Positions 5,928-47,440 of a DNA stretch of 64,000 bases are shown piece by piece (positions within the stretch are counted from its first letter, which is position 1; every line of letters starts with the position of its first letter). The DNA lies in the NCBI GenBank assembly GCA_041649155.1, contig JBAZNP010000001.1:3581-67580 (forward strand), in the 5' to 3' direction. The notes beneath the pieces were generated by a model, which was not told the origin of the DNA, made no database searches, and saw only the letters and a list, made by a program, of their open reading frames with translations. Origin of the DNA: Patescibacteria group bacterium. GTDB lineage: Bacteria; Patescibacteriota; UBA1384; XYA2-FULL-43-10; 1-14-0-10-43-13. A program made the translations under genes and the position numbers.

Positions 5928-6033
5928 GTTCGCTTCGCTTCTTTTTACGCACTGATTTTTGACTAATATATCTTGTAATAAAAGAGGAAGCGCTCATTTT
6001 CACAAGCATTCCCTCTTCGCTCAGGAGAGACTT

Positions 6034-6166
6034 CGGGAGGAAGCCAGAGGCAGACCCATAGTTGTCGTTCGTATTGTCAACCCTGTTGGTGTCGAACTTG
6101 ACCTTGTCGTCGTTGAAGTTGAAGTACGGAGCCTTGTCGAACTCACCATCGGCCTCAGAATCTTTG
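6034..6166 (-). other. DGR template repeat (TR)
   Basis: 133 bp that align without gaps to 6609-6741. All 21 mismatches are T on the + strand here (A on the minus, coding strand) against C or A in the other copy. In frame it encodes N-rich AAC codons (NFNDDKVKFDTNRVDNTNDNY). Confidence 0.9.
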
Positions 6167-6469
6167 CTTTTGTCCATCTATATTCACTGGAAATTGAGCT
6201 TTACTTCCACTTAGCGCAGACTATATGCTCTCTTCCCTGTATTTCATTTGGCAGCAGCTCGATATGTATTCACCGAACATCCGCACCAGACAAAAACAAG
6301 CAGTATCTCCTCAACCAGGTGCACTCTTAGAAACCTTGGTCGCTAAGATTCTGACCTTTCTATTGATTTGAGATTTCGGCGGCAGCAATCCCTGCCTACC
6401 GGCAGGCAAGCGTAAACTACTACACATTAGCCTATTTTCATCGAAAGTATACACTAGCACAGCTTAATA

Positions 6470-6520
6470 TTGCAAAAAAAATGTAAAGAAAACAGGCTAT
6501 TCGTATGGTGGCGAATAGCC
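6470..6520 (-). terminator. Putative rho-independent terminator of the DGR target gene
   Basis: 9 bp stem ggctattcg/cgaatagcc with an 8 nt loop. On the minus strand it is followed by the U-rich run tgttttctttacattttttttg. Confidence 0.45.
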
Positions 6521-6532
6521 TGCGCGTAGCGA

Positions 6533-6545
6533 CCGCCTTCGGCGG
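6533..6545 (-). other. GC hairpin downstream of VR (candidate DGR homing hairpin)
   Basis: ccgcc ttc ggcgg lies 64 nt 3' of the VR/IMH end. DGRs commonly need a GC stem-loop in this position. Confidence 0.4.
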
Positions 6546-6602
6546 ACAGGATCAAGTGGCAAAGAGCCAAAAGATCCAAGGGATCTAAGAAACAAGGAAC
6601 AA

Positions 6603-7508
6603 CTACTGCGGGAGGAAGCCAGAGGCAGACCCACAGCTGCCGCTCGCAATGCCAACCCTGTCGGTGTCGAACCCGACCCTGACGCCGTCGAAGCCGAAGT
6701 ACGGAGCCTCGTCGAACCCACCAACGGCCCCAGAATCTTTGAACTCATCTCCTGCCATGTCAGCGTGGAGCTGCTCCCAGCGAATGAATCGCTCAGGGTG
6801 AGTCAGCATGATGGCGCCAAACGCGACGCTTCCGAGTCCGAACTCGTTGGTCACGAAGACCTCGCGAGCCCTTCGTACAGATCTGCCACGATGGCGCATG
6901 CCGAGCTGGGCAGCGATAATCAGAATATCGCCTTTCTGTGTCTCGGCGATCTTCTCAAGTGCTTGCGCGGTACGGGCGAGAAGCCTCAGTTGAGCCGGTG
7001 TAATCTGCCCATCACGATAGTTGTAGAACGATCGCATCTCTGCGATCTTGACATGGATGAGCTGGATTGCTCTGCAGTACTTCTCGTCCCGGTCAGTGAC
7101 CTCGGGGAAGTGCTTCAGCGCTATGGCCTCGACAGCGGGGACAGCGAACCATCCTTCTGCTCCCTTAGGGAGCTCGGGCAGGTTCTTCGCGTTCAGGAAC
7201 GCCTCAGTCGGGTCAAGTTCGAAGATCTTGGCGATTGCCGCGATCTGTTCCTCAATTGGCTTCGGTCCCTTATACTCCGGCGGGTAGACGTAGCTGGACG
7301 CCACTTCCTCGTTGGCGAACTGGTTAGTGGCAGAATGCTTCTCGATGGCTTTTCTTATGTCATCTTGAAGTGCGCCACCATTCTCGTTAAGACGCTGTGC
7401 TCGATCCTCGTCGAGCTGAGCCTGGTTGTAGACAGCCTCAAAGAGGCCAGTTGCGTGGAGACCTTTCGGGTCTCTGGACGTGATCAATGCTTTCTGCATC
7501 GTCATCAT
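6603..7508 (-). CDS. DGR variable target protein, with VR at the C-terminus; the ORF is open back to 7565 but an RBS supports a start at 7508
   Basis: ggagga RBS followed by ATGATGACGATG at 7508. The C-terminus is ...FDEAPYFGFDGVRVGFDTDRVGIASGSCGSASGFLPQ. The gene is conspicuously GC-rich compared with its neighbours. Confidence 0.8.
   Translation of the reverse strand: MMTMQKALITSRDPKGLHATGLFEAVYNQAQLDEDRAQRLNENGGALQDDIRKAIEKHSATNQFANEEVASSYVYPPEYKGPKPIEEQIAAIAKIFELDPTEAFLNAKNLPELPKGAEGWFAVPAVEAIALKHFPEVTDRDEKYCRAIQLIHVKIAEMRSFYNYRDGQITPAQLRLLARTAQALEKIAETQKGDILIIAAQLGMRHRGRSVRRAREVFVTNEFGLGSVAFGAIMLTHPERFIRWEQLHADMAGDEFKDSGAVGGFDEAPYFGFDGVRVGFDTDRVGIASGSCGSASGFLPQ
6609..6741 (-). other. 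DGR variable repeat (VR), including the IMH at its 3' end
   Basis: Counterpart of the TR. The 25 bp stretch cgggaggaagccagaggcagaccca (6609-6633) is identical in TR and contains no A on the coding strand, which is IMH-like. Confidence 0.9.
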
Positions 7509-7534
7509 CCTCCTTGTGTATAGGATTTGCCGTT

Positions 7535-7595
7535 CCTTGTGTGGAACAAGCACTCTATTGACCATATTTTGATCAACAAGGTGCTTGTTCCAAGG
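7535..7595. promoter_or_regulatory. Inverted repeat (ggaacaagcac ... gtgcttgttcc) in the promoter region of the DGR target gene; candidate operator
   Basis: 11 bp perfect arms (7543-7553 and 7581-7591) with ccttg/caagg extensions and a 27 nt spacer, 35-87 nt upstream of the start at 7508. Confidence 0.4.
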
Positions 7596-7723
7596 TAATT
7601 TTAAAGTTCAATTTACGTTTAATATTATATCATAAAGTGAAAAATAAATCAAGTGGTTGACCAAAGTAACGTTTTGTGATATTTTAATAAGCGTAAAAAT
7701 AAAAAGTTTTCAAGGAGTTAAGA

Positions 7724-16300: not shown

Positions 16301-17638
16301 ATGATTTTAAAGATAAAAAAAACTAACGATCCAATATTGAGAGAGCCAGTTGAAAAAGTGGTTGATTTTGGTTTTGAATTTCAAAAGTTCATTGATGACA
16401 TGGTTGAGACAATGCACAAAAAAAACGGAGTTGGCTTAGCCGCCCCTCAGGTTGGAGAATCAAAAAACGTTTTCATATGCGGATTCGAAGGCGATAAAGA
16501 TAATGAAGACGAGAGAAAAATCAGTTTTCCATTAACCGTAATTTGCAACCCCAAGATAACCAATTTCAGCTCAAAAAAATGCAAAATGGTAGAAGGATGC
16601 CTTTCTTTCCCGGGAATGGAGTTAATAATCAACCGGCCGGAAGCAGTTACAATTCAGGGGCAAGATCGATATGGAAAGAATATTGAAATTAAAGCCGACG
16701 GTTTGTATGCAAGAGCGATACAGCATGAATATGACCATTTAAATTCAACTCTTTTAATTGACCGGTTGGAAGAAATTAAAATTATATTTATCGGCACAGG
16801 TACGCTTGGTGCCAAATCGCTTGAATTATTAGCAAAAGATCCTCAATATAAAATTTTGGCTGTTATAACAGGAAGCGAGAAAAAAGTTATAAGCCGAAAT
16901 AAAAGTGAAAAGAAAAATGTTATTCTTGAAATCGCTAAAAATAATAAGTTGAATGCAATAGTTACAGATAATATTAAAAATCCCGAAACTATAGAAAAAA
17001 TTAAGAAACTAAAGCCGGAATTAGGTGTGATGGCTGATTTTGGTCAGATTATCCCAAGAGAAGTTTTAGATATTCCCGAACACGGAGTCATCAACATTCA
17101 CCCATCACTTTTGCCAAAACATCGCGGCTCCTCCCCAATTCAACAAACAATTCTGGACGGCGACAAATTTACCGGCGTTTCGCTTATTCTGACATCGGAA
17201 AAAATGGATGCCGGCGACATTATTTCACAAACAAAAGTCGAATTATCAGGTGCTGAAACTAGCGGCATATTGAAAGACTATCTATCACAAATCGGCGCTT
17301 CCATGCTATTAAATTCAATTCCATACTACATGACAGGCGATTTAAAACCATTTCCCCAAAAAGAGGAAAAAGCAACTTATACAAAAATGATAAAGCCGGA
17401 AGACGGATATGTTGACGCCCAGACCAAAGCTGCAGTAGTAGAAAGAAAAGTCCGAGCCTTTGATCAATGGCCAAAAGTTTACACAAAAATCAAAAATAAA
17501 AGAGTGCAGATTACTTCATCTCATTTTGAAGAAGACGGCGTGTTTGTAATTGACAGGGTTAAGCCAGAAGGCAAAAAGGAGATGAATTATTCGGATTTTC
17601 AGAATGGTTACAAAACCGAGTTGACTTTTGACGCATAG
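16301..17638 (+). CDS. def-fmt: Bifunctional peptide deformylase / methionyl-tRNA formyltransferase (Def-Fmt fusion)
   Basis: Def motifs GVGLAAPQVG, EGCLSFPG and QHEYDHL are followed in one ORF by Fmt motifs IIFIGTGTLGAKSLELL and HPSLLPKHRGSSPIQ. Confidence 0.85.
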   Translation: MILKIKKTNDPILREPVEKVVDFGFEFQKFIDDMVETMHKKNGVGLAAPQVGESKNVFICGFEGDKDNEDERKISFPLTVICNPKITNFSSKKCKMVEGCLSFPGMELIINRPEAVTIQGQDRYGKNIEIKADGLYARAIQHEYDHLNSTLLIDRLEEIKIIFIGTGTLGAKSLELLAKDPQYKILAVITGSEKKVISRNKSEKKNVILEIAKNNKLNAIVTDNIKNPETIEKIKKLKPELGVMADFGQIIPREVLDIPEHGVINIHPSLLPKHRGSSPIQQTILDGDKFTGVSLILTSEKMDAGDIISQTKVELSGAETSGILKDYLSQIGASMLLNSIPYYMTGDLKPFPQKEEKATYTKMIKPEDGYVDAQTKAAVVERKVRAFDQWPKVYTKIKNKRVQITSSHFEEDGVFVIDRVKPEGKKEMNYSDFQNGYKTELTFDA

Positions 17639-19652: not shown

Positions 19653-21284
19653 TTAACTCGCCTGACCTTGATTCGAGTTTGGCAAATTCTGGTCGTTAGG
19701 AATAGAATTTTGATCTACAGGATTATTAGCGACTGCAATATCTACTTCTGCAGGAATAGAAGTGTTGTTAGTATTTTGCGTAGAAATATAGGTCTGAATA
19801 AGCTGATTATCATTATGATCAGTTTTGACATTTTGGCTGTCCTGTTTATTTTCCACAGCGGCCTGCTCGGGCATGTTGCTTTGAGTCTCCTCTGAAATAG
19901 CTTGACTTGAGTCAGCTTGGGGGATTGTTTTAGCATTTTCATTTGCAATAACGTCTTTATTTATCCCTCCAAAACCATGCTCAATAGTCCCTTGCCCTGA
20001 CACAGTGCTGTTTTGAACCACCAGTTCCGGAGCTGGTATCGAAGGCTCAGCTTGAACAGGAGTATCTACTAAGCCTTGATCTTGAATAACTTGATTTGGT
20101 TGAGGTTGAACCGATATTTCCTGTGCTATATTCATCGATTGGTCACTTTGAGAAATCTCATCCATCGGATTAACAGTAACAGCAGCAGGCTCTGAAAAAC
20201 TCGTCATACTTCTTAGCATTGCTGCATGTTCTTTTCTCCTCTTAACAAAAAGCGCTATAAATACTACCATTCCGATAAAAATAAGCGCCGAACCTCCATA
20301 AATAGCATATGTTAAATATTTATTCTCTTTTTCAGGAGTCGCCTCCGTTGTAACAGGCACAGCTTTTATTTCCGGAAGAGTTTTTCCGAAAGCAACTCTC
20401 GTGCTATCCAAAACGAAATCAGCCGCTACATCCGTACTTTTTACGCCGTCTTTTTCGGTATTAATAACGATCTGATGAGCACCGTCTTCAATCTTTTGAT
20501 CTAACGTATAAGACCAATTACCAGATTCATCAGACTGGACCGAAGCAGCAATCGGATCACTGTTGATCGTAACATTCACTTTAACCGATGGATCGGCCGT
20601 TCCCATAAAAACAAGTTTCCACTCATCACTATTTTTAATTGAAATTTCGGGATTTTCAGGATCAACAGTGGAGTTAAGAAAAGAAACATTTTTAATTACG
20701 GGTAAATTTAGCACAGTTGGCGTGGTTGATGCGGCCGGCGTAGTTGTTGTTTTTGCTGAAGATGTTGTCTTTTTAGACACTGATGTTGAAGTTGTGTTAG
20801 CTGTTATACTGGCCACAGATGAGGACCCCGACACAGCAATATTTGCCCCATCGCCATCATATGCAGCCAAATCGGTTAACGACAAAGTTGCTTCTCCCTG
20901 AGCTTTAGTTTTAAATGGTATGGTTAGCAAAGTGGCATCCTCCGTAGAACAACCAGTTGCGCCAAGTTGATAATGAATCCTACTCGCAGAATTTTCTGCA
21001 GCAGTTGACATAGTATAAACCGAGCCTAAAGAAGGTGTGGAAGTGACTTCCAGAAGATCAGAAGGATATGTCAATGTAAATTCAACTGCACAAATCCTGT
21101 TTCCTCCGGATGATAAACCAATACTAGAATTAAATGTCGCTCCAACCTTGTAGCTTCCACCACCAGAAACACCCATGGAGACACCATCCGCTTTAACTAA
21201 ATCCGCGCTCAAAAATAACAAAGTGAATACTGCAATAAAATATAATATTTTTCTCATTTCTTTCCTCTTTTTATTCATTTTCAT
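19653..21284 (-). CDS. Type I membrane surface protein with an N-terminal cohesin-like domain, a Ser/Thr linker, one TM and a Q/N-rich cytoplasmic tail
   Basis: Signal peptide MKMNKKRKEMRKILYFIAVFTLLFLSADLVKA. VEFTLTYPSDLLEV fits the cohesin F-x-L-x-Y-D-x-x-L-E-V pattern. TM segment YAIYGGSALIFIGMVVFIALFV. Confidence 0.55.
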   Translation of the reverse strand: MKMNKKRKEMRKILYFIAVFTLLFLSADLVKADGVSMGVSGGGSYKVGATFNSSIGLSSGGNRICAVEFTLTYPSDLLEVTSTPSLGSVYTMSTAAENSASRIHYQLGATGCSTEDATLLTIPFKTKAQGEATLSLTDLAAYDGDGANIAVSGSSSVASITANTTSTSVSKKTTSSAKTTTTPAASTTPTVLNLPVIKNVSFLNSTVDPENPEISIKNSDEWKLVFMGTADPSVKVNVTINSDPIAASVQSDESGNWSYTLDQKIEDGAHQIVINTEKDGVKSTDVAADFVLDSTRVAFGKTLPEIKAVPVTTEATPEKENKYLTYAIYGGSALIFIGMVVFIALFVKRRKEHAAMLRSMTSFSEPAAVTVNPMDEISQSDQSMNIAQEISVQPQPNQVIQDQGLVDTPVQAEPSIPAPELVVQNSTVSGQGTIEHGFGGINKDVIANENAKTIPQADSSQAISEETQSNMPEQAAVENKQDSQNVKTDHNDNQLIQTYISTQNTNNTSIPAEVDIAVANNPVDQNSIPNDQNLPNSNQGQAS

Positions 21285-21320
21285 CTTATTTGTTAACTAG
21301 TCGCTTATTTATATTTTACT

Positions 21321-24300
21321 CTATTTCCCCCAATAACTCATCATTATAGAAAAGTCAGATATATTGACCTTATTGTCTTCGTTGAAATCTGCTGTATTGG
21401 CAATTTCAGTTTTGTTCCAATTAGACATCAGGTTTGAAAAATCCTTAATGTTCACCGCGCTGTCGTTATTAGAATCACCGGATTTACGTCTTATTAAAGA
21501 TATTAACAGGGGCTCTGATTGGTTTCTATTACTATCTTCAGCAATGACAGTTAGGGTGGTTGTTCCGATTGGAAGATCTACTTCTTTTGTCCACGTAGTT
21601 ATATCCGCAGGTACATCTACTTCTGAACCATTTATGATTAATCTAGTTACATTTGTTGATTTAGTACCGGTTACAGAATATTTAGCTTTGTAAGTAAAGC
21701 TTCGAGCAAGATTGGTGGTTGGAGAATTTAAAGTCATTCCTTCTGTTAGAGATGTCATTCCTTCAAACATTTTCTTTTCAAACTTATTAGCAGCTATCTG
21801 CAAAGCACTAAGATTAGATTCACTACTAAGATCGACTCCCCACCAACCAGTACTGGCAAATGCAGAAGTGGTACTTTCGGTTGGACTGGTTAATTCATAA
21901 AAATGAATATCCCCCAACCAAAGATAATCACTATCTGTTCCACTATATATTGTTATCGCAAATTCGATCTGGGTTGCATCAGACGGAGTAGTAAATTCAC
22001 AATAGCCAGAATTAAACTGAGAAAATTTTTCCCAATTAGATATAGCATAGCCAAACTGGTTTCCAGGACCGCCGGAAATATAAGTTCCGTCCGCATTATA
22101 ATAGCTAGTAGATAAATTAAAACTTTCTATCGTCGGGCTTTTTGTAACAAATGTGTACCAATATTTAGTATTTGGTTTCACGGTAATTTTTTTAGAAACT
22201 ACGGTCCGTAAATATTGAGTTTGGTCTTTTTTCGCGAATGAGATTTTCATTGTATTATGACCATTGTATTGATTAACGCTATCGGTAGTGAAGTTCACTG
22301 ATCCATGCCAATTATCGCTTAAAGAATTTTGAAATGTTCCATCCGGAAAAATATCGGAGCCAATATTAACATCTGATTTTGTATCAAGTATTGCGTCAGA
22401 TAATCCGGTAATCCAATCGGCAGAAGTAGATTTTGTCCAATCAACTCCCCATTCGCCAAAAACAACTGGTTTTTGCATTAAAGTAGCGTAATGACTGCGT
22501 AATTTAAGCTGTTTTATTGCTCCAGCGACATCGATTGGACCGCCAACAGGACCGTACTTATCAATCCAATCCGCAGCTTCAGCGTCTGTTAAGCCTCCTC
22601 GTTTATTGGAATCAGTCGGATCAAATTGGCCATAATATCCATGGTTAAACACGAAACCGCTTGACTCCGGATATCCGTGCCATGTCAGTAAATCAATACT
22701 TTCCGAAATTCCCGACAACACAAAATCATGATTATTATTTGCGTTGAACCCAGCTTCATAATTATGCGTGAACCAAACACTTCCATCATCGCCAGATGAT
22801 AACATGTGATTCGGATCAATACTTTTTTCATATTTGCTTATTTTATTGATCCATGATCGCAGTCTGCCACCAGAACCGGTATCAAAAGGTTCGTTAACAA
22901 GTTCCCAAGCGAAAATCGCCGGATCATCTTTGTAAACTTTACCAGTCACTGTATTTGTACGATTAAGAAATTTATTAATAATTTGATCGGTCATATTTTC
23001 TGAACAAGCATCATTAAAGAAACTACTGTTCCAAGTTGTAGCACAATTTCTCGCAATTTCTCTTGTGCCGCCAGTATTGTTGTCATGCTGATCAAGAAAA
23101 GTGAACATTATCCTAACATTATATTTTTGAGCCAAAGCCATGACTTTATCGGCAGCAACAAGGGCATCCTCATTCCAATTGCCAAAACCAGTCATATAAG
23201 CGCTACTTTCACCAGTTGGCCATTGAGTTCTAGGGTTATCTTTAGTTTCGTTTGTTGTTGGCAAAACACCGGCAGCGGCTGTGCTATTTGAAGTAGGTAT
23301 TGCAGGAGAAGTTGCTGCCACACCTTCATCAACATAAGAAACAACACCATTAACACTGCGAATCATTGCAATAAATTTTTCGCTTCCTTCCAGATCTGAT
23401 GATTTACGACGATATATGGCCGCCCAAGGAGAATTTTGAGTTGGAACAGTCACCTTAACTGCTTCACTGCCTGAGACTGTTACTTGAGCAGTTGGACTTG
23501 CTAATGTGAGAAATGTTCCGTTATTTCCTGCCACAAATTTTTCACCGTTTTCTTTGCCGTTGACTGGTTTGCGTTGTTCTTTAAAGGCATATCGATAAAT
23601 ATAATCTCCTGCTTCTAAGGTCGTTGTGGCACCAGTATTTCTTGCTTGGGTTTCTAATGTTGGCGCTTCTGTTGGATCAGCCCAAATTCCCGATGGTCGA
23701 TAGGAACCGTCATCAATGAAGGTCGCATCTTGTCCGGCCGGAGCTTCAGCAAAACCAAGATAGGTTTCGCTATCTACTGCATCAGTTGTATTGCGTCGAT
23801 AAACTAGATATCGGTAAGATTGCGCACAAGCCTTAAGCGTCAAGCTAACCTTCTGGCTGTCAGAAACAGTTACAGCACCAGTTGCAGGACTCGCTAATGT
23901 CTCGGCATAATCATAAGCAAAAGTAGTTTTGCTTAAATTCGCACATGTATAACGATAAACATAACTTCCAGCAGAAAGAGTACCACCGTCAGAAATTGCA
24001 GCTGTAGGCGCAGCTGTAGGATCGGGTAGTTTCATATCGTCAAGCATATAATTAATGACTCTAATCATTTTGATACCGGCTTTTTCGTCATTAGCAAAAC
24101 CTTCTTCCACTTGATCAGGATTGCCCATCATTTCAACAATTGCCCCAAAATTATTTGCTCCATTACCATAATATGGATGATCATTTTCTATGATTTGGGT
24201 ACCTTCGGATTTTAATATTGATTTAGAGTCATCGCCATACTCAATTTTGAATTTATTAGCAGCAGAAACTAAATTATCTGTTTTATCTGATACTGAAATT

Positions 24301-24647
24301 GTATGAACACCATTATTTAGGGCATCTGGTTTATAATAAAAATGACCGGCAGAATCTACCGTGACACTAGTCAATGTAGTTCCATCATACGAAATATCCA
24401 AAGAAGCATTTGGCGTAGCAGTCCCTTGTATTAAAGGATTATTTACATAAGTAAATCTTGAATTATTTGTTGGGGATAAAATTGTTGGCTGTATAATTGC
24501 ATTCTCATCTGCTTTAAAGAAAAATTTATACTTAAAAACGACGGCAAACAAGCCAGCAAACAAAAATACGCATATTAAAATAATAAGACGCACTTTTGTT
24601 TGATTGCCTAATTTATACATTAAATCACCCTCCTGGGGTTCGAACAC
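21321..24647 (-). CDS. Membrane-anchored GH5-family glycoside hydrolase with a C-terminal dockerin domain
   Basis: IFAWELVNEPFDTG is the GH5 NEP catalytic acid/base motif. The C-terminus GDSNNDSAVNIKDFSNLMSNW...ADFNEDNKVNISDFSIMMSYWG is a duplicated dockerin Ca-binding segment. N-terminal TM anchor. Confidence 0.7.
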   Translation of the reverse strand: MFEPQEGDLMYKLGNQTKVRLIILICVFLFAGLFAVVFKYKFFFKADENAIIQPTILSPTNNSRFTYVNNPLIQGTATPNASLDISYDGTTLTSVTVDSAGHFYYKPDALNNGVHTISVSDKTDNLVSAANKFKIEYGDDSKSILKSEGTQIIENDHPYYGNGANNFGAIVEMMGNPDQVEEGFANDEKAGIKMIRVINYMLDDMKLPDPTAAPTAAISDGGTLSAGSYVYRYTCANLSKTTFAYDYAETLASPATGAVTVSDSQKVSLTLKACAQSYRYLVYRRNTTDAVDSETYLGFAEAPAGQDATFIDDGSYRPSGIWADPTEAPTLETQARNTGATTTLEAGDYIYRYAFKEQRKPVNGKENGEKFVAGNNGTFLTLASPTAQVTVSGSEAVKVTVPTQNSPWAAIYRRKSSDLEGSEKFIAMIRSVNGVVSYVDEGVAATSPAIPTSNSTAAAGVLPTTNETKDNPRTQWPTGESSAYMTGFGNWNEDALVAADKVMALAQKYNVRIMFTFLDQHDNNTGGTREIARNCATTWNSSFFNDACSENMTDQIINKFLNRTNTVTGKVYKDDPAIFAWELVNEPFDTGSGGRLRSWINKISKYEKSIDPNHMLSSGDDGSVWFTHNYEAGFNANNNHDFVLSGISESIDLLTWHGYPESSGFVFNHGYYGQFDPTDSNKRGGLTDAEAADWIDKYGPVGGPIDVAGAIKQLKLRSHYATLMQKPVVFGEWGVDWTKSTSADWITGLSDAILDTKSDVNIGSDIFPDGTFQNSLSDNWHGSVNFTTDSVNQYNGHNTMKISFAKKDQTQYLRTVVSKKITVKPNTKYWYTFVTKSPTIESFNLSTSYYNADGTYISGGPGNQFGYAISNWEKFSQFNSGYCEFTTPSDATQIEFAITIYSGTDSDYLWLGDIHFYELTSPTESTTSAFASTGWWGVDLSSESNLSALQIAANKFEKKMFEGMTSLTEGMTLNSPTTNLARSFTYKAKYSVTGTKSTNVTRLIINGSEVDVPADITTWTKEVDLPIGTTTLTVIAEDSNRNQSEPLLISLIRRKSGDSNNDSAVNIKDFSNLMSNWNKTEIANTADFNEDNKVNISDFSIMMSYWGK

Positions 24648-24652
24648 AAATA

Positions 24653-24688
24653 TGTTTTATATATTAAGAAATTGTGAGCCCTTGTCAA
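24653..24688 (-). promoter_or_regulatory. Promoter of the GH5 gene (TTGACA, 17 nt, AATATA)
   Basis: Minus strand reads ttgacaagggctcacaatttcttaatata, followed by a ggaggg RBS before the ATG. Confidence 0.4.
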
Positions 24689-24779
24689 ATTTCTTAATAA
24701 AAGATACTTATATCTTGACATATTACCTTCTTCCTTGCAATAAATTCAGGCAAAATAGCACAAAAAAAATCGCGATGAT

Positions 24780-25580
24780 GCGATTAAAGTAATTGGGTGC
24801 TTCCGGCCGAGGAATTTGTGGCCGGAAGCAGAGCTCTATATTAAGTCGCAAGGTGCAACTTGTTTATATTGGTTTGAGGCTATGCTTGGCAGCATCCTCC
24901 GCCACGCTTCACTCGCCCAAAGGTATGGATTCGATCCAGGGCCTCCTCGACCCTTTGTCTGAAATTGATCTCAGTCTTCCGATCACGCGTGATGATGCAA
25001 ACAACAGGAGCCATGCTCTCCACTTTATTAAGGATTGAGGTATGGCTTAAGCTTCTCTTGAGTCTAGTGGATTTTCCGCTAGACTTTTCAGATCTTCTTC
25101 TTGGCATCCCATTACCGCTACGCATTGGTCCATAAACCTCCTTGTCTATGTTTTTTCTTCATCCTAAGCTTCGGAGTTTTCTTCTGCTTGTCCAAAGATG
25201 ACCTAAACCATCTTCCTCTGTGTTGAGATGTGTCTGATCTGACATTACTACTCATAATGTCATCTCCTGACAAATCGTTTCCTGCCCTGTTAGAACAGGG
25301 TTGAACAAGCAGTCAGAACTCTTAGGATCAATGTAGCGTGCAGACACACCAGTGTCCAATGGGTGGCTTTGTGATGCTTCACAGAAACTCAAGCTCACTG
25401 AGCTAATAGCGTTAACCCTACGAACGCACCTTTCTTCTCTTGCTGCGGCCATAGCTGGCCGCAATCGTTGTACTTCTCTCCCCATAACCTTCCCTCCATG
25501 TCATCCATGATTTGTTGTACTTGCAAGAGCAGAATTAGCCAAATTTCTCGTTTTTATCACCTCTCTTCTGTAGTAGACAT
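24780..25580. ncRNA. GC-rich island without a long ORF; candidate structured ncRNA of unknown class (strand undetermined)
   Basis: Roughly 50% GC by eye inside an AT-rich locus. It holds only overlapping 77-81 codon ORFs on both strands and has many hairpins (cttccggcc/ggccggaag, ccctgt/acaggg, gcggcca/tggccgc). Confidence 0.25.
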
Positions 25581-37808: not shown

Positions 37809-38900
37809 TTACCACCTTAGAGTTTGGTCTGCTTGATCAAGATGTTGCTGCTCGGTGTCAATGTTTAATTTTGATGTGACAATATTATAAATCTCTTTTT
37901 CAATATCCCCGATTTCTTTTTCGCCGTCAATAATAACGAAACGATTACTTTCATCTTTTGCTAAAAGTTCATAAGTCGCTAAAGTTTTTTCTAATTTTTT
38001 CTCTTCCTCAAAAAGTTCAAAACCATCTCGGGACTTTCCTATGCGATCAATGCAAACTTCCGGCGGAACTTTAATAAAAAAAGTAATATCGGGCAAAATA
38101 AAATGCTTGTTAATTTCTCTTAGCCATTCTATATCAGCGCCAATTGAACCGAAAGCAATACTAGAAAAAAGGTAGCGGTCAGTAATTACAACATCCCCTT
38201 TATCTAAATTTGGGATGATGGTATGCTTTAAATGATGTGATCGATCGGCAGCATACAAAAGTTGGAATCCTTCTGCTGGAATCGTCCATTCTTTTGTTAA
38301 AACCCCTCGAATCAATCCACCAATCAGATTATTGGTTGGTTCTTTAGTTGTAGAAACTGTCAGGCCATTCCCCCGTAGATTTTTTGCTAATAAATCCACC
38401 TGGGTTGTGCTACCAGATCCGTCAAGACCTTCGAACGCAATAAATAAGCCTTTTTGACTACATTCCTTGGCTGTATGCTTTTTTCCAGTAGAGCCAAATC
38501 CGTTCATACCACGATCCGAAGCTGATAATTCTTCAACTATTTGAATATTTGGATGCTCGATCTTTTGAACTAACAGTTGAGCTACCTTGTCTCCCTTTTC
38601 TATTATATAATCCTCTTGACCAAGATTAAGAAGACTAACATGATATTCTCCTCGATAACCTGCGTCCATTACGCCGCCCATGGTTTTAATTGAATGTTTT
38701 GTTGCTAATCCGCTTTTGTCCCATATTAAAGCTACATGATCATCAGGAATTTCTATAGCCAGTCCAGTTTTAATACTGAGAACTTCGTTTGGTTTTAGTA
38801 CACAATTTTCGATACTAAACAAATCCATTCCCGCATCATTATGATGTGCAAATTCTGGAACAATTGCGTCAGGATGTAATTTTTTAACTTTTAAGTCCAT
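37809..38900 (-). CDS. dut-tmk: Bifunctional dUTP diphosphatase / thymidylate kinase (Dut-Tmk fusion)
   Basis: Dut motifs DAGMDL, GVMDAGYRGEY and RGMNGFGSTGK. Tmk P-loop FEGLDGSGSTTQ and a lid region. One continuous 363 aa ORF. Confidence 0.8.
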   Translation of the reverse strand: MDLKVKKLHPDAIVPEFAHHNDAGMDLFSIENCVLKPNEVLSIKTGLAIEIPDDHVALIWDKSGLATKHSIKTMGGVMDAGYRGEYHVSLLNLGQEDYIIEKGDKVAQLLVQKIEHPNIQIVEELSASDRGMNGFGSTGKKHTAKECSQKGLFIAFEGLDGSGSTTQVDLLAKNLRGNGLTVSTTKEPTNNLIGGLIRGVLTKEWTIPAEGFQLLYAADRSHHLKHTIIPNLDKGDVVITDRYLFSSIAFGSIGADIEWLREINKHFILPDITFFIKVPPEVCIDRIGKSRDGFELFEEEKKLEKTLATYELLAKDESNRFVIIDGEKEIGDIEKEIYNIVTSKLNIDTEQQHLDQADQTLRW

Positions 38901-42025: not shown

Positions 42026-45000
42026 TCATTTAAAAATACCCATTATCCAGCTAAGGGATTTTTGTAATGAGTCAACGATAATATCAATTACAGAACTTTG
42101 TGTTTTACCTGTAATGGTAGTTGTGTCATCGGAATATCCAGCATTACCAGCATTATCTTTTGAAATAGCTCTTAGATGATAAATTTTATTTGATTCTAGC
42201 TCCGAAACAATTACAACGTGAGAAGTTGAAAGCACTGCATCTTCTTTACTTTTGTTTTTGTATTCGCTGCCCGATATACCTTGTTCATATTCTACCTGTG
42301 AAGTACCTGGCTCATCCGTTTCCCAAGTCACCACCACTTGCGCTTTCTGAGATGTGCCAAAACCAGAAGATTTGACTTCAATGGTCATGTTAGATATTTT
42401 TGGAGAACGAGAGTCTTTTGGCGTATCAATACTTGTTGTAAATGGAGTCTCTATTTCATTTCCATACTTATCCCTGCCTGTTACTATAAATTTATAGGTA
42501 CTCATGTCAGCCAAATCTGGAATTATGAGGTCATGGTTAATAGTATAATCAGCGGATGAACGTGATAGTTTTTGGCCAGAAGATGATTCGTAGTTTATAA
42601 TCGTTGTCGTCTCTACATTTGTTTCCCAAGAAAATCTGTAGGTTGTAGTTGGAGCAGTAGTATCCTGATCTGACCGGACTCCATTTGTTATAGCTGGCAT
42701 TGTCAAAGTATTAAAATCATTTTTAGCGCCAAAATCCATTTTATTACCATCTACATCAGAGCCAAGAATATAGTAATAATATTTTGAAGAATGATCTAAT
42801 CCCGATAAATTAATAGTATGGTTTTGAATATATCCAGTTTCAACTTCTTCCACCTTCCCTGCTCCTTTATCAATTTCGTCCTTATCTTTGCTGTAAACAA
42901 TAGAGGTAGTTGTTGGAATTGAGGTTGTATAACTGATTGTTGCAGAATTTAAAGATATATTATCCACAGGAGCAACAGAAACAATAGGTCTTGCCAATGT
43001 ACGAAAACTCATTTTTTCACTTCGACCCTCGTTTCCATTTTCATCAACCCAAACTGCTTGATAGTAATATAGCGCCCCGCCAGGCTGCAACCCAGTGATC
43101 GTTACGCTATGTTGATCAGTCAAACTCAATTGACCCTTGGTTTCACCGCCATTTTCCTGTCCAATTTTATTTGGATCGGTTCCGTATTCAACAAAGCTAG
43201 AAGCTTTATGAACAACTTTTGGATCGACATCTGTTGTTTCCCAAGAAATCGTGGCGGAATAAGCCTTTTCAACTACATCTAGCTTTTCATTTTTTATAAT
43301 AGGCGCATTACTAAATTTGCCAGTTGGCACTATTTGAACTGTACTAGAAGCAACAGATGTTTGACCGGCATTGTCCTCAGATTCAACATTATAGAAATAT
43401 GCTTGCGAAGAAAGACTTGTATCAGCAAAAGTCGTGCTAGTGGTAGTTCCTGCTTGACTAAAATTTATTCCATCAGTCGACCTATAAACGTTGTAGCCCA
43501 TAAATCCGGCACCTTTATCTTGAGGCTCACTCCATGTTAGAAACACTTTATAACTGGCGAGATCACGATTTGAACCATCAACTGCAGAAACTGCCGTCGG
43601 CGTACCCGGAGCCGGAGTAATCGCCCAAAAAGACGCTGAAGCATAAATATCGTAATTTATATTTCCAGCTTCATCTTTAGCAACGACATATATTGTATTT
43701 TGTCCTTGACGTGTTGCATAGGAATCGGCAGCAAGTGATAGTGTTGTCGACAATGTAATATTTGTAGAGTTGGGAGTCTCGTTTATACTGTAATAATATT
43801 TCAATGCCGATTCGTTTCCAGAAAAAGTTGCTGGCTTGGACCACGAAAAAGAAAAATTATTCGATGCTGACGGATTCTGTTCTGACGATTCAGGGGAAGC
43901 GGTTAAATTTTGCGGAGCCGATGGCGCAGAATCATTATGATAAAAAGTGGCTTGAACGGGGCTGCTTTCATTGCCGGCGTTATCGATAGTTTTTAAGTAA
44001 AATATATTTGACCCTTCTTGATACCAGGCGCCATTTAAAGTTACTTGGAGTTCGGTTGTTATGTTTGACCAATTAGCATAATCTCCCCCGCCAGTTTTAT
44101 ATTTATAACCGCTTAAGCCAGAACCAGCATCAGAACCAGCCGGCCACAAGAAAGTGTAATCATTTACCGAAGAGTATCCAGATGGGGAAGATGAAACATA
44201 CGAAGGATTAGTCGGCAAGGTGTTTTCGTATTGGTATTTAAATGCCTTGCTTGAAACTGTCGGATCCCAAATCGTGCTATTGCCAAAGTTATCTTTTATT
44301 TTAACTCTCAAATAATATGTCGATCCTGAAACCAAAGCTCCAGCTACGGTTGCATTTGGCGATTCGGTCCAATAAACTGACCCGTCAGCATTTAGAACAC
44401 CGGAAGTTTCTTCTGGATCAGCAGTATTACTCGTACCAAAATAAACATAATAACCATCTATCCCGTTAGTATCGCTATCACCGCTCCATGAAAAATATGG
44501 ATTGGCGTGATTATGCCAATGATCTTCATTCGAAATAATTTCATCTCCTCCAGAAGCAGACAAAGAAGTTAAATTTGTGGGAGAACTGGGATTTACTAAA
44601 TCACTGGAAACATCAAAAATCTTTAACTTGTCAATCAAACCGCTAAATGTATCAAAACCTCCGCCCGGTACGGAACCAACATAAAAATCATCACCATAAT
44701 TTGGGGCCGGTGCAGACCAACTTGTTGTAGTGCTAGTAGTCACACCATCAACAGTTAATGACAATTCTCCGGTTGATTGCTTGTAACTAGCAGAAATAGA
44801 ATGCCAGCTATCGCGAGTCCAATCAAGAGTCGCGCTTTCTAAATATGTAGAATTATTCGGGGTGCTTGAGTTATATGAAGGATAAAATCTAACTTTTCCT
44901 CTAAACGGATCGATCTCTAACCTTAAACTGTTTGTCGAATTGCTTGACTGTAAAAGAACTTGGGATGGAGGAGTTCCATCATATGTTTCCCAAAAGGAAT

Positions 45001-47440
45001 CCATATCTGTTTTTATAATACTACGATTTCCGGCATTAGCTACATAAACGAATCCGTCATCATAATAAATTTCTTGTGGACCATTAAATTTTCCTTCTCC
45101 ACTCGCGCCGAATATGCCATAAGTTGTCCATCCGGTCCATGAATCGTCAAGTTTGGTTTTAACGATCCTATTATGGCCATCTGAAATATAGAAATACTGA
45201 TCGACGTTATCATACGCGATCCCTTTGGGTGTAGAAAACTTGCCAATGGCGTCGCGGGTGCCGGATGTGCCATAAGTTGTCCATCCGGTCCATGAACCGT
45301 CAAGTTTGGTTTTAACGATTCTAGCATTACTGCTGTCTACAATATAAAGATACGGATTTGCCGGATCATCACTTGGAACCGCCATGATAGCACTGGCACC
45401 TGAGAAGTTGCCAACACCGGTGCCGCTAGACCCCATTGATAGCAGACCTGTCCCATCAGATTTAATTCGAGCAATACTAGTACCAAGAGTATAGTAAATA
45501 TAATCATTAACAGAATCATAATAAATTTTACTCACAGAGCCAGCGACATTGATAGTTTTTTTTGAATTTGACCCATCTAATTTCAGAATAGTAATAGTTG
45601 AAACACTTGAATACTTTTCAGCTACAAACAAATTTTGACTTGCTTCGTCATAATAAAATGATTCCAGAGTAAAATTAGGAGAATTAGTAGAGTAGGCGCT
45701 CCAATCAGTACCGTCGAAATTTGTTTCAATTATTTTATCACCATCGACATTAGTAGAAAATGTATTACCAATAAACATTTTCCCAGATACATTATCATAA
45801 TAAAACTCTGTTACTCCATTGAAGGGGCGACTAGCACTCAAAGACCTTGGGCTTTCATCAGATCCCACCGCATGCCAACCCGATATTGATGTAGTATCTT
45901 CTCCAGTCCAACCCAACACGGTATGAGAAGCGTCATTATCAAAGACTTGAATACGATTATTTGTAGTATCGGCAACATAGATTTTGTTGTTTGAGTCAAG
46001 AGTCACTCCAGAGGGATGAGCAAAATTGTAATCGCCAGAACCGGTCACTCCTACTTTGCCAGAGCCGACATCATGCCAGCCAGCATCAGTGCTGCTCTTC
46101 CCCATCCAGCCCAACATGGTGTGAGAAGCGTCATTATCAAAGACTTGAATACGATTATTTGTATACTCGGCAACATAGATCCTGTTGTTTGAATCAATAG
46201 CCACTCCACGAGGAGCATTAAAATTATAATCGCCAGAACCGCTTGTTCCTATTTTACCGGAGCCCAGCGCATGCCAGCCAGCATCATTAGCGCTCTTTCC
46301 CATCCAGCCCAACATGGTGTGAGAAGCGTCATTGTCAAAGACTTGAATACGATGGTTCGAATACTCGGCAACATAAATCTTGTTGTTTGAATCAAGAGCT
46401 ATTGCATAGGGAAGATTGAAATTGTAATCGCCAGAACCGGTCACTCCTACTTTGCCAGAGCCGACATCATACCAGCCAGCATCAGTGCTACTCTTTCCTA
46501 TCCAGCCCAACATGGTGTGAGAAGCGTCATTGTCGTAGACTTGAATACGATAATTCCCATAATCGGCAACATAGAGTCTGTTGTTTGAATCAAGAGCCAC
46601 TCCTTTAGGACTATTAAAACTGTAATCGCCAGAGCCGATCGCTCCTGTCCCGTCGGAGCCAATATCATGCCAGCCAGCATAAGCGCTGCTCTTTCCAATC
46701 CAACCCAATGGAGAACCTGCATTGTCAAAAATTTGAATTCTATGATTAGTACTGTCGGCAACATAAATATTGCCGCTACTGTCTACAGTTACGCCCGATG
46801 GAACATTTAACTGTCCGTCCCCAGTTCCAGATAAACCAAAACTACGCCAGCCCGTAACACCGTCGGGTTTTACGACTACAATACGATTATTACTAGTATC
46901 GGCAATATACAAAAGATCGGTACCTGCATGATAAAAAACGGTCTGAGGAGAATTAAAGCCTCCATCCCAATCCCCCTCGATCACTCCGGGATATTTTGCC
47001 TGTAAAGAAATCATGCCTTCGGAATCACTCAAGTTGCTCGATGCTGAATATTTTAAAGTTTTACCATTTGTTAACTGCGCCGCTTGCCCCATTTCATTAT
47101 AGCCAGGACTTACCAAACTAGCCGGAGTACCATCGTTGGAAGCGGCAGTAGAACCAAGCCCGCTATCTGCGTTCAAACTGCCTGCATTATAATTGGCGGA
47201 AAAACCATTTGCCGCCTTAGATAACCTCACATCAACGAATAAACTACTCAATATCAAACCTATAATAGTAGTAGCGCATAAACCAAGTGTCGCAAAATGC
47301 ACTTTCTTGTGATGAGGATGATGATGCCAGTCATGGTATTTTTCTGATTTAGAACACAAAAATTCATGCGCTTTTGTAAGCGGTTTAATCTTTGGAGTCG
47401 AACAATTAGGACAATTGCAATAAGTCAAAACCTCCTCCAC
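42026..47440 (-). CDS. Giant (1804 aa) type II membrane surface protein with an NHL-repeat beta-propeller and FN3-like and LamG-like domains
   Basis: N-terminal CNCPNCS...C zinc ribbon, His-rich HDWHHHPHH, then a TM segment. At least six near-identical NHL repeats (YVADSTNHRIQIFD, YVAEYSNHRIQVFD, ...). LamG-like LDWTRDSWHSISASY. Confidence 0.7.
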   Translation of the reverse strand: MEEVLTYCNCPNCSTPKIKPLTKAHEFLCSKSEKYHDWHHHPHHKKVHFATLGLCATTIIGLILSSLFVDVRLSKAANGFSANYNAGSLNADSGLGSTAASNDGTPASLVSPGYNEMGQAAQLTNGKTLKYSASSNLSDSEGMISLQAKYPGVIEGDWDGGFNSPQTVFYHAGTDLLYIADTSNNRIVVVKPDGVTGWRSFGLSGTGDGQLNVPSGVTVDSSGNIYVADSTNHRIQIFDNAGSPLGWIGKSSAYAGWHDIGSDGTGAIGSGDYSFNSPKGVALDSNNRLYVADYGNYRIQVYDNDASHTMLGWIGKSSTDAGWYDVGSGKVGVTGSGDYNFNLPYAIALDSNNKIYVAEYSNHRIQVFDNDASHTMLGWMGKSANDAGWHALGSGKIGTSGSGDYNFNAPRGVAIDSNNRIYVAEYTNNRIQVFDNDASHTMLGWMGKSSTDAGWHDVGSGKVGVTGSGDYNFAHPSGVTLDSNNKIYVADTTNNRIQVFDNDASHTVLGWTGEDTTSISGWHAVGSDESPRSLSASRPFNGVTEFYYDNVSGKMFIGNTFSTNVDGDKIIETNFDGTDWSAYSTNSPNFTLESFYYDEASQNLFVAEKYSSVSTITILKLDGSNSKKTINVAGSVSKIYYDSVNDYIYYTLGTSIARIKSDGTGLLSMGSSGTGVGNFSGASAIMAVPSDDPANPYLYIVDSSNARIVKTKLDGSWTGWTTYGTSGTRDAIGKFSTPKGIAYDNVDQYFYISDGHNRIVKTKLDDSWTGWTTYGIFGASGEGKFNGPQEIYYDDGFVYVANAGNRSIIKTDMDSFWETYDGTPPSQVLLQSSNSTNSLRLEIDPFRGKVRFYPSYNSSTPNNSTYLESATLDWTRDSWHSISASYKQSTGELSLTVDGVTTSTTTSWSAPAPNYGDDFYVGSVPGGGFDTFSGLIDKLKIFDVSSDLVNPSSPTNLTSLSASGGDEIISNEDHWHNHANPYFSWSGDSDTNGIDGYYVYFGTSNTADPEETSGVLNADGSVYWTESPNATVAGALVSGSTYYLRVKIKDNFGNSTIWDPTVSSKAFKYQYENTLPTNPSYVSSSPSGYSSVNDYTFLWPAGSDAGSGLSGYKYKTGGGDYANWSNITTELQVTLNGAWYQEGSNIFYLKTIDNAGNESSPVQATFYHNDSAPSAPQNLTASPESSEQNPSASNNFSFSWSKPATFSGNESALKYYYSINETPNSTNITLSTTLSLAADSYATRQGQNTIYVVAKDEAGNINYDIYASASFWAITPAPGTPTAVSAVDGSNRDLASYKVFLTWSEPQDKGAGFMGYNVYRSTDGINFSQAGTTTSTTFADTSLSSQAYFYNVESEDNAGQTSVASSTVQIVPTGKFSNAPIIKNEKLDVVEKAYSATISWETTDVDPKVVHKASSFVEYGTDPNKIGQENGGETKGQLSLTDQHSVTITGLQPGGALYYYQAVWVDENGNEGRSEKMSFRTLARPIVSVAPVDNISLNSATISYTTSIPTTTSIVYSKDKDEIDKGAGKVEEVETGYIQNHTINLSGLDHSSKYYYYILGSDVDGNKMDFGAKNDFNTLTMPAITNGVRSDQDTTAPTTTYRFSWETNVETTTIINYESSSGQKLSRSSADYTINHDLIIPDLADMSTYKFIVTGRDKYGNEIETPFTTSIDTPKDSRSPKISNMTIEVKSSGFGTSQKAQVVVTWETDEPGTSQVEYEQGISGSEYKNKSKEDAVLSTSHVVIVSELESNKIYHLRAISKDNAGNAGYSDDTTTITGKTQSSVIDIIVDSLQKSLSWIMGIFK

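Follow-up and report, generated by a model that had tools for sequence, protein, structure and literature searches.

The question raised by this locus is whether two neighbouring genes, one for a cohesin-bearing membrane protein and the other for a dockerin-bearing glycoside hydrolase of family GH5, form a system that keeps an enzyme on the surface of a CPR bacterium. Genomes of the CPR/Patescibacteria are tiny, and these bacteria are believed to live fixed to other cells or to particles; how they display enzymes at the cell surface is little understood. We analysed a window of 64 kb from a MAG of 0.8 Mb (the whole stretch of DNA, to which all coordinates refer), in which the original prediction had recognised a minimal cellulosome-like pair. 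The two genes most likely encode a two-part system that would hold the enzyme on the cell surface, and we put at roughly two in three the probability that they form a two-gene operon encoding a cohesin-dockerin tether of the non-cellulosomal type.

Both open reading frames were recovered as predicted, head to tail on the minus strand, on which all features given below also lie; their starts had to be moved. The enzyme gene (21321..24620, NCBI MFA4995547.1) starts at ATG 24620 and encodes 1099 aa, and the anchor gene (19653..21257, MFA4995546.1, annotated at NCBI only as "Ig-like domain-containing protein") starts at ATG 21257 and encodes 534 aa. The mechanical ORFs reach further, to GTG 24647 and to 21284, which had given 1108 and 543 aa; in both genes the start corresponds to Met10 of the mechanical ORF, follows a Shine-Dalgarno (SD) sequence (AGGAGG and GAGGA, respectively) and agrees with the NCBI lengths. 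The 63-nt spacer (21258..21320) contains the SD of the anchor gene and no terminator-like site. Just upstream of the GH5 gene lies a promoter-like site, TTGACA-16-TAATAT (24661..24688, 10/12), which is a consensus match only, such matches not being statistically enriched (11 found vs 16.7 expected). The gene trmD is convergent and downstream of the pair. The promoter-like site, the short gap with its own SD and no terminator-like site and the convergent trmD together make the layout operon-like; the pair thus looks like a two-gene operon, and the enzyme and anchor genes are presumably co-transcribed. The genes around the pair are housekeeping genes, an 800-nt structured region lies upstream, and Rfam gave no match in two GC-rich, ORF-poor regions. 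Within the 64-kb window there are exactly one cohesin and one dockerin, adjacent on one strand across this gap, and a chance adjacency of the sole cohesin and the sole dockerin is unlikely.

The anchor protein has all the parts announced for it by the original prediction. A signal peptide (…LSADLVKA/DG, 21189..21257) is followed by a cohesin module (20796..21182), a nine-strand beta-sandwich with a Cys pair that is invariant in its subfamily, then by a Thr/Ser-rich linker (20673..20795), a Big_13 bacterial Ig-like domain (20406..20612, 34.3 bits for a cut-off of 27), a single transmembrane (TM) helix (20235..20318) and a Q/N/S-rich low-complexity tail of about 190 aa (19656..20234). The TM helix is followed by KRRKE, which by the positive-inside rule places the C-terminus in the cytoplasm. 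The N-terminal domain is a cohesin. PF00963 missed it when the full-length protein was scanned against Pfam but matched the isolated domain (20760-21203) at 32.9 bits (cut-off 24.1, E 8.8e-8), as it did 53 of 60 relatives of this domain, and the family profile retrieved the scaffoldin cohesins 1g1k and 2vn5 (E about 5e-7). The AF2 model was all-beta (pLDDT 89.1, pTM 0.81), and its best 15 Foldseek matches in the PDB were all cohesins (TM 0.64-0.78), among them 2xdh (E 6e-9, TM 0.70-0.74). Pfam revealed no carbohydrate-binding module (CBM) in the anchor. Low-complexity linkers can evidently mask cohesin domains in whole-protein profile scans, and a membrane cohesin has here been overlooked by current annotation.

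The C-terminus of the enzyme (21324..21482) is, as judged from its sequence, a canonical duplicated type I dockerin, with two F-hand repeats, DSNNDSAVNIKDFSNLMSNW and DFNEDNKVNISDFSIMMSYW. PF00404 scored 25.1 bits when the whole protein was scanned and 31.4 bits on the module alone (cut-off 22.9), and the NCBIfam GC-type dockerin model scored under its own cut-off. Both 12-residue Ca loops follow the canonical pattern D-x-N-x-D-x-x-x-N-x-x-D: DSNNDSAVNIKD and DFNEDNKVNISD each carry D1, N3, D5, N9 and D12 within repeats of about 22 residues, an EF-hand-like loop and then a helix. Repeat positions 10/11 and 17/18 read IK/MS and IS/MS. The best PDB matches were type I dockerins, with a loop-for-loop alignment to 4fl4, 2y3n_B, 2vn5_B and 1daq. 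In the full-length enzyme model this region had pLDDT <50, with two short helices at the expected places.

The remainder of the enzyme is an elaborate GH5 protein. It begins with a hydrophobic helix (aa 7-35, 24516..24602) followed by a conserved "KAD". This helix is probably a signal peptide, for which cleavage is assumed; the hydrophobic segment is long, with Phe at -3, so that it is possibly an uncleaved signal anchor and might stay in the membrane, in which case the cohesin-dockerin tether would be redundant. A bacterial Ig-like domain (24243..24485, Big_7, 26.2 bits for a cut-off of 24.1) precedes the first part of a (beta/alpha)8 barrel (24021..24233, beta1-alpha1-beta2), which holds the conserved Arg in IKMIRV. 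The barrel is then interrupted by about 270 aa (23211..24020) forming two tandem-duplicated all-beta domains (33 % identical, E 4e-11), for which no Pfam family and no PDB sequence relative were found; the second copy is missing from the relatives P0009 and P0011. The main part of the barrel (22350..23210) carries WELVNEP, WHGYP and VVFGEWG. It is followed by a beta-sandwich of CBM16/CBM4/CBM22-like fold (21861..22349), which had no Pfam match and was recognised by Foldseek through 2zew and 3oeb (TM 0.75 relative to the target), and by a strand with an invariant TGWW and a long helix (21756..21860). If the latter are beta8/alpha8 of the barrel, as we infer, the CBM-like module would be a second insertion. 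An Ig-like beta-sandwich (21483..21698), Glucodextran_B-like at a sub-threshold score, leads to the dockerin.

The assignment of the barrel to GH5, predicted from WELVNEP, held. The domain matched solved GH5 mannanases with E 3.6e-21 to 1e-16 (9m20, 3.6e-21; 4qp0, 1e-20; 8gf3, 3e-18), and E reached 2.7e-24 once the insertion was spliced out. WELVNEP aligns with the mannanase motif WE(I/L)xNEP and contains the acid/base Glu, E577 in the 1099-aa numbering; the Arg of IKMIRV and the H-x-Y of WHGYP align as well, whereas the putative nucleophile, E723 in VVFGEWG, aligns weakly to 9m20. N576, E577, H648, Y650 and E723 are invariant across the enzyme family, as are NEP and FGEWG. The full-length model was moderate (pLDDT 69.6), and its top 16 Foldseek matches were GH5 mannanases or mannosidases (E 2e-11 to 2e-8, TM relative to the target 0.4-0.54). 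The domain is thus a GH5 (beta/alpha)8 barrel in which the catalytic residues appear intact. No GH5 match came from scanning the whole protein with Pfam and NCBIfam, the classical PF00150 being silent, although PF26410 ("GH5_mannosidase") is on record for this protein. Taken alone, these scans, with neither a cohesin nor a GH5 match, would have led us to dismiss the finding wrongly; isolated-domain scans and PDB and profile searches settled the matter. The original prediction was to be abandoned if profile searches found no cohesin or dockerin, or if the GH5 catalytic residues were missing, and neither was the case. The enzyme resembles the beta-mannanases/mannosidases of GH5_7 and carries a CBM16-like module, the subfamily being assigned from its nearest neighbours, which are without exception mannanases or mannosidases and include BlMan5_7. 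Mannan would accordingly be the expected substrate. The original prediction had also considered scavenging of polysaccharide from a host or the environment; the surrounding housekeeping genes give no hint on a host, and beta-mannan is at least as suggestive of detritus from plants or algae.

The identified domains, the topology signals and an arrangement of genes that recurs are observations, and from them a simple working scheme can be drawn. The downstream gene would produce a type I membrane protein, its signal peptide cleaved off, whose single cohesin would be held off the membrane by the Thr/Ser linker and the Ig domain, with one C-terminal TM helix as anchor and a disordered, Q/N-rich cytoplasmic tail. 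The upstream gene would produce a secreted multi-modular GH5_7-like beta-mannanase/mannosidase with, in order, an Ig domain, the interrupted barrel, the CBM16-like module, a further Ig domain and the dockerin. This C-terminal dockerin is predicted to plug, in a Ca2+-dependent manner, into the cohesin of the anchor; the enzyme would thus be displayed on the surface of its own cell and manno-oligosaccharides would be released beside it. That the two modules bind each other is a prediction for which their genomic association speaks, and they offer a concrete, testable protein pair of two small modules. The locus would then represent a complete minimal plug-and-socket arrangement in a CPR bacterium. 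The parts are real, and such a tether would be ordinary in principle, cohesin-dockerin tethering being already known from other bacteria and its principle being unchanged here.

The pairing recurs, which supports the predicted enzyme-tethering pair. In L002, a dockerin tail ending in ...DFNEDSKVNIQDFSIMMSYWGK* lies directly upstream of an anchor 65 % identical to ours. In L016, from another Patescibacteria MAG, the gene of a GHL15-family protein (53 bits) whose tail is dockerin-like precedes a cohesin-Ig-TM gene by 37 nt, so that the pairing recurs independently with a different hydrolase; L016 also has P0024, an adaptor-like protein with a cohesin and a dockerin-like tail, near this cassette. 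The dockerin-like tails of L016, P0024 and P0029 remain under the Pfam cut-off, at 13-15 bits. A signal peptide, a single cohesin and a TM helix were found in 102 of 150 representatives of the anchor family. We rejected a universal adjacency of the two genes because relatives exist with either partner unpaired: four closer anchor homologues adjoin type IV pilus genes and have no dockerin neighbour, orthologous anchors occupy a conserved pilus-trpS-RNaseH neighbourhood containing no dockerin genes, and the other dockerin-bearing GH5 protein, P0005, is encoded alone in a ribosomal-protein cluster. P0005 and the anchor P0015 come from one sample, on separate contigs. The enzyme family varies at its C-terminus, which bears a dockerin in P0003 and P0005, a TM helix in P0007 and P0010, an LTD domain in P0006 and P0012 and Ig domains in P0009; this swapping of C-terminal modules suggests that this end is an attachment device. 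Word-index homologue searches had yielded two anchor and ten enzyme relatives, to which a profile re-search added nothing useful, and scans with the GH5 alignment found four loci in genomes and three in metagenomes, none with a dockerin or a cohesin.

Of the "cellulosome-like" pair, the minimal pair stood and the cellulosome did not. The anchor protein contains one cohesin, the window one cohesin and one dockerin; there is no CBM3 and no multi-enzyme scaffold, and the cargo is a mannanase-type enzyme with its own CBM16-like module. A cellulase or cellulosome reading was rejected since the nearest neighbours of the enzyme are all mannan-active GH5 proteins and the hallmarks of scaffoldins are absent from the window. 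The nearest analogues are, for the same reasons, direct single-cohesin anchors and minimal pairs. ClcC/ClcD of Cellulosilyticum lentocellum is an adjacent pair with one cohesin and one dockerin, for which the heterodimer was shown experimentally (PMC13487519). As here, the genes are about 40-60 nt apart, with the only cohesin on one protein and the only dockerin on the GH5 partner. However, ClcC is soluble, is built as CBM3-X2-cohesin, directs its enzyme to cellulose and lacks a membrane anchor, whereas our anchor is a type I membrane protein devoid of CBM; ClcD is a GH5_1 cellulase, whereas our enzyme is GH5_7-like; and the enzyme gene comes first in our pair but second in ClcC/ClcD, which belongs to a Firmicute.

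OlpA and OlpC of Clostridium thermocellum resemble our anchor in carrying one type-I-like cohesin on an envelope protein that captures an enzyme without a multi-cohesin scaffoldin, and 4dh2 (Coh-OlpC) was the rank 13 structural match of our cohesin model. OlpA and OlpC are anchored to the Gram-positive wall by SLH modules and coexist with a full cellulosome, whereas the present anchor uses a C-terminal TM helix and a long cytoplasmic tail. Single-cohesin proteins with C-terminal TM helices, and thus with the same anchoring logic, occur in Lachnoclostridium sp. MSJ-17, an organism of another phylum that was judged non-cellulolytic and for which an adjacent dockerin-enzyme gene was not reported (PMC11557425). 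The best matches of the cohesin model were 2xdh from Archaeoglobus fulgidus and 2jh2, 2vo8 and 2w1n from Clostridium perfringens (E 6e-9 to 3e-7, TM 0.66-0.78, at a sequence identity of 14-18 %), in which cohesin-dockerin modules work outside cellulosomes; in C. perfringens it is the enzymes that carry the cohesin, through which complexes of toxins or glycosidases are assembled. As for the catalytic domain, the best matches in both sequence and structure were the GH5_7 enzymes 4qp0, 8gf3 (BlMan5_7), 1rh9, 3pz9, 1qno and 1uuq, with which the Arg (beta2), Asn-Glu (beta4) and His-x-Tyr (beta6) align; the present barrel differs by the tandem beta-domains inserted after beta2 and, probably, by the CBM-like insertion before beta8. 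Cellulosome-related genes had been remarked earlier in CPR genomes at the annotation level, in other lineages and for other genes, with no analysis of domains or structures and no comparison (Kantor et al., 2013, PMC3812714). Our literature searches found this passing remark and no dedicated description of CPR cohesin-dockerin systems.

Other explanations of the pair have to be weighed against a dedicated tether. The cohesin-Ig-TM protein could be a general docking port for several dockerin-bearing clients encoded genome-wide, the GH5 enzyme being one of them and the adjacency a lineage-specific convenience rather than the mark of a 1:1 pair. The wide distribution of the anchor architecture, the anchors of the pilus-trpS-RNaseH neighbourhood, the separate contigs of P0005 and P0015 and the adaptor-like P0024 all favour such a port; however, the window holds only one dockerin, and P0005 and P0015, with GC contents of 0.407 and 0.386, are not assignable to one genome. 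We consider this unlikely; it is nonetheless compatible with the tether, which it extends. Much less probable is that the complex serves adhesion more than catalysis: the CBM-like module and the binding cleft of the enzyme would grip a surface that contains mannan, be it a host cell, a particle of plant or algal origin or the matrix of a biofilm, and the cohesin-dockerin bond would bear the force that keeps the small cell attached. Cohesin-dockerin bonds are indeed mechanically strong, extra beta-domains and the CBM16-like module surround the active site, and the pilus genes adjoining relatives' anchor genes are attachment machinery. Nevertheless, the family-wide conservation of all catalytic residues argues for an active enzyme, and adhesion and catalysis are not mutually exclusive.

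The functional link itself could also be an illusion, the dockerin being an orphan Ca2+-binding stabilising module or a binder of something else, the cohesin-like domain having another ligand and the genes being neighbours by chance. For many cohesins and dockerins outside cellulosomes no partner is known, a survey listing single-cohesin proteins "of unknown function" (PMC11557425), and several relatives lack the adjacency; but its recurrence in L002 and, with a different enzyme, in L016, as well as the close same-strand spacing of the window's only two such modules, make mere coincidence highly improbable. The dedicated tether thus remains our preferred reading. More tentatively, one may imagine the cohesin-Ig-TM protein as a lineage-wide socket of Patescibacteria, usually beside type IV pilus genes, that possibly takes interchangeable dockerin-tagged hydrolases (the GH5 mannanase in our window, the GHL15 protein in L016) as well as cohesin-dockerin adaptors such as P0024. 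If true, this would be a modular, membrane-anchored exo-enzyme display for ultra-small, wall-poor episymbionts, evolved separately from clostridial cellulosomes. The Q/N-rich cytoplasmic tail of the anchor, which is conserved, might then couple the occupancy of the socket to the cell interior.

Two open reading frames were found head to tail on the minus strand, as had been claimed from the sequence: an upstream frame of 1108 aa (21321-24647) encoding the dockerin-bearing enzyme and a downstream frame of 543 aa (19653-21284) encoding the cohesin protein, called here the anchor. In each of them a strong Shine-Dalgarno sequence (AGGAGGGTGATTTA for the enzyme, AAAGAGGAAAGAA for the anchor) precedes an internal Met10 (ATG at 24620 and 21257, respectively), and these starts agree with the NCBI lengths of 1099 aa (MFA4995547.1) and 534 aa (MFA4995546.1). 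The real gap between the two adjoining genes is thus 63 nt. The attribution to a reduced-genome CPR bacterium also agreed with the NCBI record of both proteins ("MAG: Patescibacteria group bacterium", contig of 798,787 bp). A promoter-like sequence, TTGACA-16-TAATAT, lies just 5' of the enzyme gene, as a consensus match only and of a type not enriched in the region. No terminator-like site was detected between the enzyme and anchor genes, and a convergent trmD gene follows the latter.

A whole-protein Pfam scan of the anchor returned a Big_13 Ig domain only; a cohesin was absent even at E<=1. A search of PDB sequences with the whole protein likewise gave no match, and both results seemed to contradict the predicted cohesin. 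This absence was a false negative, overturned by the match of the isolated domain to PF00963 Cohesin (32.9 bits, E 8.8e-8, gathering score 24.1); whole-protein hmmscan had missed a domain that stands 9 bits over the threshold when scanned alone. When residues 28-175 were used by themselves, an exhaustive HMMER search recovered 487 representative relatives at E<=1e-3, PF00963 was also matched by 53 of the 60 aligned relatives, and the alignment profile retrieved the Clostridium cellulolyticum scaffoldin cohesins 1g1k and 2vn5 (E about 5e-7) together with other cohesins. The AlphaFold2 model obtained from this alignment was confident and all-beta (pLDDT 89.1, pTM 0.81), and its best Foldseek matches in the PDB were cohesins without exception (15/15). 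Matches included Archaeoglobus fulgidus 2xdh (E 6e-9, TM 0.70/0.74), C. acetobutylicum CohA2 (from dockerin complexes), C. perfringens cohesin modules, R. flavefaciens ScaB, and C. thermocellum OlpC. The long low-complexity Thr/Ser and Gln/Asn stretches of the anchor most likely explain why the full-length scan missed the domain. NCBI labels the anchor and its relatives just "Ig-like domain-containing" or "hypothetical", and cohesins are probably under-annotated in low-complexity-rich CPR surface proteins.

The other predicted parts of the anchor were all present: a signal peptide (ending VKA/DG), a Thr/Ser linker (32 % Thr, 15 % Ser), a single TM helix followed by KRRKE, and a tail of 190 aa rich in Q (13 %), N (12 %), and S (11 %), to which the Big_13 Ig domain is added (34.3 bits versus a cut-off of 27, scanned alone). 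The positive-inside rule makes the anchor a type I membrane protein whose cohesin faces outward and whose tail is cytoplasmic.

Pfam Dockerin_1 recovered the duplicated dockerin ascribed to the enzyme at 25.1 bits within the full sequence (cut-off 22.9) and at 31.4 bits (E 2e-7) when the module was scanned alone. Its two repeats, DSNNDSAVNIKDFSNLMSNW and DFNEDNKVNISDFSIMMSYW, exhibit the canonical Ca2+-ligand pattern D1, N3, D5, N9, D12. It aligned repeat for repeat with the type I dockerins of the solved complexes 4fl4, 2y3n_B, 2vn5_B, and 1daq (E 0.002-0.01, with a query of 60 aa). At the positions by which type I dockerins recognise cohesins, the repeats are near-symmetrical (IK/IS at 10-11, MS/MS at 17-18), a symmetry that would be compatible with a dual binding mode. 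The fold of the dockerin was not resolved in the full-length AF2 model of the enzyme (pLDDT below 50) because just two of the ten aligned sequences carry this module.

The enzyme has no match to the classical PF00150; its residues 478-667 matched solved GH5 beta-mannanases with E 3.6e-21 to 1e-16 (soybean MAN19-1 9m20, Rhizomucor 4qp0, BlMan5_7 8gf3, tomato 1rh9, and Thermotoga 3pz9), and its precomputed Pfam label in the database is PF26410 "GH5_mannosidase". This initial alignment covered the mid-barrel only, and residues 143-198 weakly matched the barrel start. When residues 201-470 of the 1099-aa protein were deleted in silico as an insertion test, the spliced enzyme aligned unbroken over the junction to residues 3-261 of 4qp0 and the E value improved to 2.7e-24. 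The insertion (23211-24020, minus strand), located between beta2 and beta3 of the GH5 barrel, is an all-beta domain duplicated in tandem (33 % identity, E 4e-11), the second copy being missing in two homologues. These beta-domains have no relative in Pfam or the PDB; the pair may influence the shape of the substrate cleft.

The catalytic apparatus is intact, in support of the predicted GH5 domain: the Arg (IKMIRV), Asn-Glu (WELVNEP), and His-x-Tyr (WHGYP) motifs align with those of mannanases, and N576, E577, H648, Y650, and E723 (the Glu of FGEWG) do not vary among the ten family members. With the full-length model (pLDDT 69.6), GH5 mannanases/mannosidases came first among the structure matches, and residues ~771-911 matched CBM16 modules with a TM of 0.75 relative to the target; one of these, Caldanaerobius CBM16-1, had been crystallised with mannopentaose. 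This CBM-like beta-sandwich is followed by an invariant TGWW strand and then a long helix; we infer that they are probably beta8/alpha8 of the barrel, and the CBM-like module would therefore be a second insertion. From the mannanase and CBM16 matches, the best guess for the substrate is thus beta-1,4-mannan or manno-oligosaccharides, not cellulose. The hydrophobic helix at the enzyme N-terminus (aa 7-35, with Phe at -3 of a conserved KA/D) may either be cleaved off as a signal peptide or stay as an anchor.

The cohesin and dockerin of this pair are the only ones in the 64-kb window, and similar associations were recovered in other genomes. In the related contig L002, which encodes a 65 %-identical anchor orthologue, the tail of the preceding gene at the contig edge ends in ANTADFNEDSKVNIQDFSIMMSYWGK and a stop, the same dockerin as in the window. 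In L016, a contig of another Patescibacteria MAG (MFA6423122.1), a 484-aa cohesin-Ig-TM protein (cohesin 35 % identical) is encoded 37 nt downstream of the gene for a 1064-aa protein ending in an Ig domain and a dockerin-like tail, a putative glycoside hydrolase of family GHL15 (53 bits versus a cut-off of 27) and thus of a different family from GH5. About 5 kb from this pair (4046-8732 in L016 coordinates), P0024 (13644-14570), a protein of 308 aa, combines a cohesin of the anchor type with a dockerin-like tail and is a possible adaptor. The tails of the L016 enzyme, P0024, and a further protein, P0029, score 13-15 bits, under the Pfam cut-off; they are 26-52 % identical to the window dockerin and share the invariant skeleton R...D...DF...W...DxNxD...DF...W. 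The C-terminus varies within the enzyme family. P0003, P0005, and the product of the L002 gene end in a dockerin, P0007 and P0010 in a TM helix, P0006 and P0012 in a lamin-tail domain, and P0009 in Ig domains. A dockerin in place of the homologues' membrane anchor is expected if anchoring is delegated to the cohesin-TM protein.

Adjacency is not universal, being contradicted by P0005, the other dockerin-bearing GH5 protein, encoded alone between map and infA in a ribosomal-protein cluster, and by four closer anchor homologues (P0013, P0015, P0018, and P0019) near which no dockerin gene was found. The latter share a neighbourhood in the order type IV pilins and prepilin peptidase, trpS, RNase H, anchor, Memo/CapA-like. 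These cases, and the arrangement of one N-terminal cohesin ahead of a TM helix in 102 of the 150 best cohesin-family representatives, suggest as the main rival that the anchor is a common socket on the cell surface, with clients possibly encoded elsewhere, a reading compatible with a tether. The conserved pilin-trpS-RNase H-anchor-Memo/CapA-like block, which holds the orthologous cohesin-Ig-TM anchor genes in L007, L009, L018, and the P0019 contig, suggests a cohesin socket linked to a pilus or attachment apparatus.

The capture of a dockerin-tagged enzyme by a cell-bound cohesin is a well-established principle. Its closest precedents include single-cohesin envelope anchors such as OlpA and OlpC of C. 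thermocellum, of which OlpC (4dh2) resembles the window cohesin in structure, and the Lachnoclostridium single-cohesin proteins with C-terminal TM helices (PMC11557425). Another is ClcC/ClcD of Cellulosilyticum lentocellum, an experimentally verified adjacent one-cohesin/one-dockerin pair as in the window, although ClcC is a soluble, CBM3-bearing targeting factor and ClcD a GH5_1 cellulase (PMC13487519). Cellulosome-related genes in CPR genomes were remarked at the annotation level in 2013 (PMC3812714), and our literature search found no paper dissecting a cohesin-dockerin system in CPR. The locus lacks a multi-cohesin scaffoldin, a CBM3, and cellulases, and we thus rejected a cellulosome identity. 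Of the original prediction, which was partly supported, the enzyme tether stood, "cellulosome-like" applies only loosely, and scavenging from a host is a mere possibility; the pair should be called a non-cellulosomal cohesin-dockerin tether, with predicted binding. It is mildly novel for its CPR context, for a membrane-cohesin family that is unannotated, apparently widespread, and found in a recurrent hydrolase-anchor cassette, and for the doubly interrupted GH5 barrel.

Immediately 5' of the GH5 gene, ~800 nt without credible ORF (24760-25560, minus strand) have a GC content of 0.41-0.54 versus 0.30 in the flanks and a predicted RNA fold of -265 kcal/mol, far more stable than shuffles (z = -6.6), closed by a hairpin and T8 terminator (24785-24768). 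Nothing in Rfam matched this stretch, even at E<=1, nor did any fetched locus contain similar DNA; it is a candidate large structured non-coding RNA without Rfam family. A GC island at ~6000-7600 (GC up to 0.615, against 0.366 for the genome) may be foreign or mobile DNA and has no Rfam match; it includes a protein-like 320-aa ORF without Pfam family (6603-7565, minus strand) and a direct repeat of 137 nt (6030-6166 and 6605-6741, 85 % identical). An 1804-aa protein (42026-47440, minus strand) with NHL/beta-propeller repeats, a laminin-G domain, and a purple-acid-phosphatase N-terminal-like domain is a probable further very large surface protein in this small genome. Finally, a dUTPase is fused to thymidylate kinase (37809-38900) and peptide deformylase to methionyl-tRNA formyltransferase (16301-17638), the def-fmt fusion also being present in L002; such gene fusions are typical of streamlined genomes.
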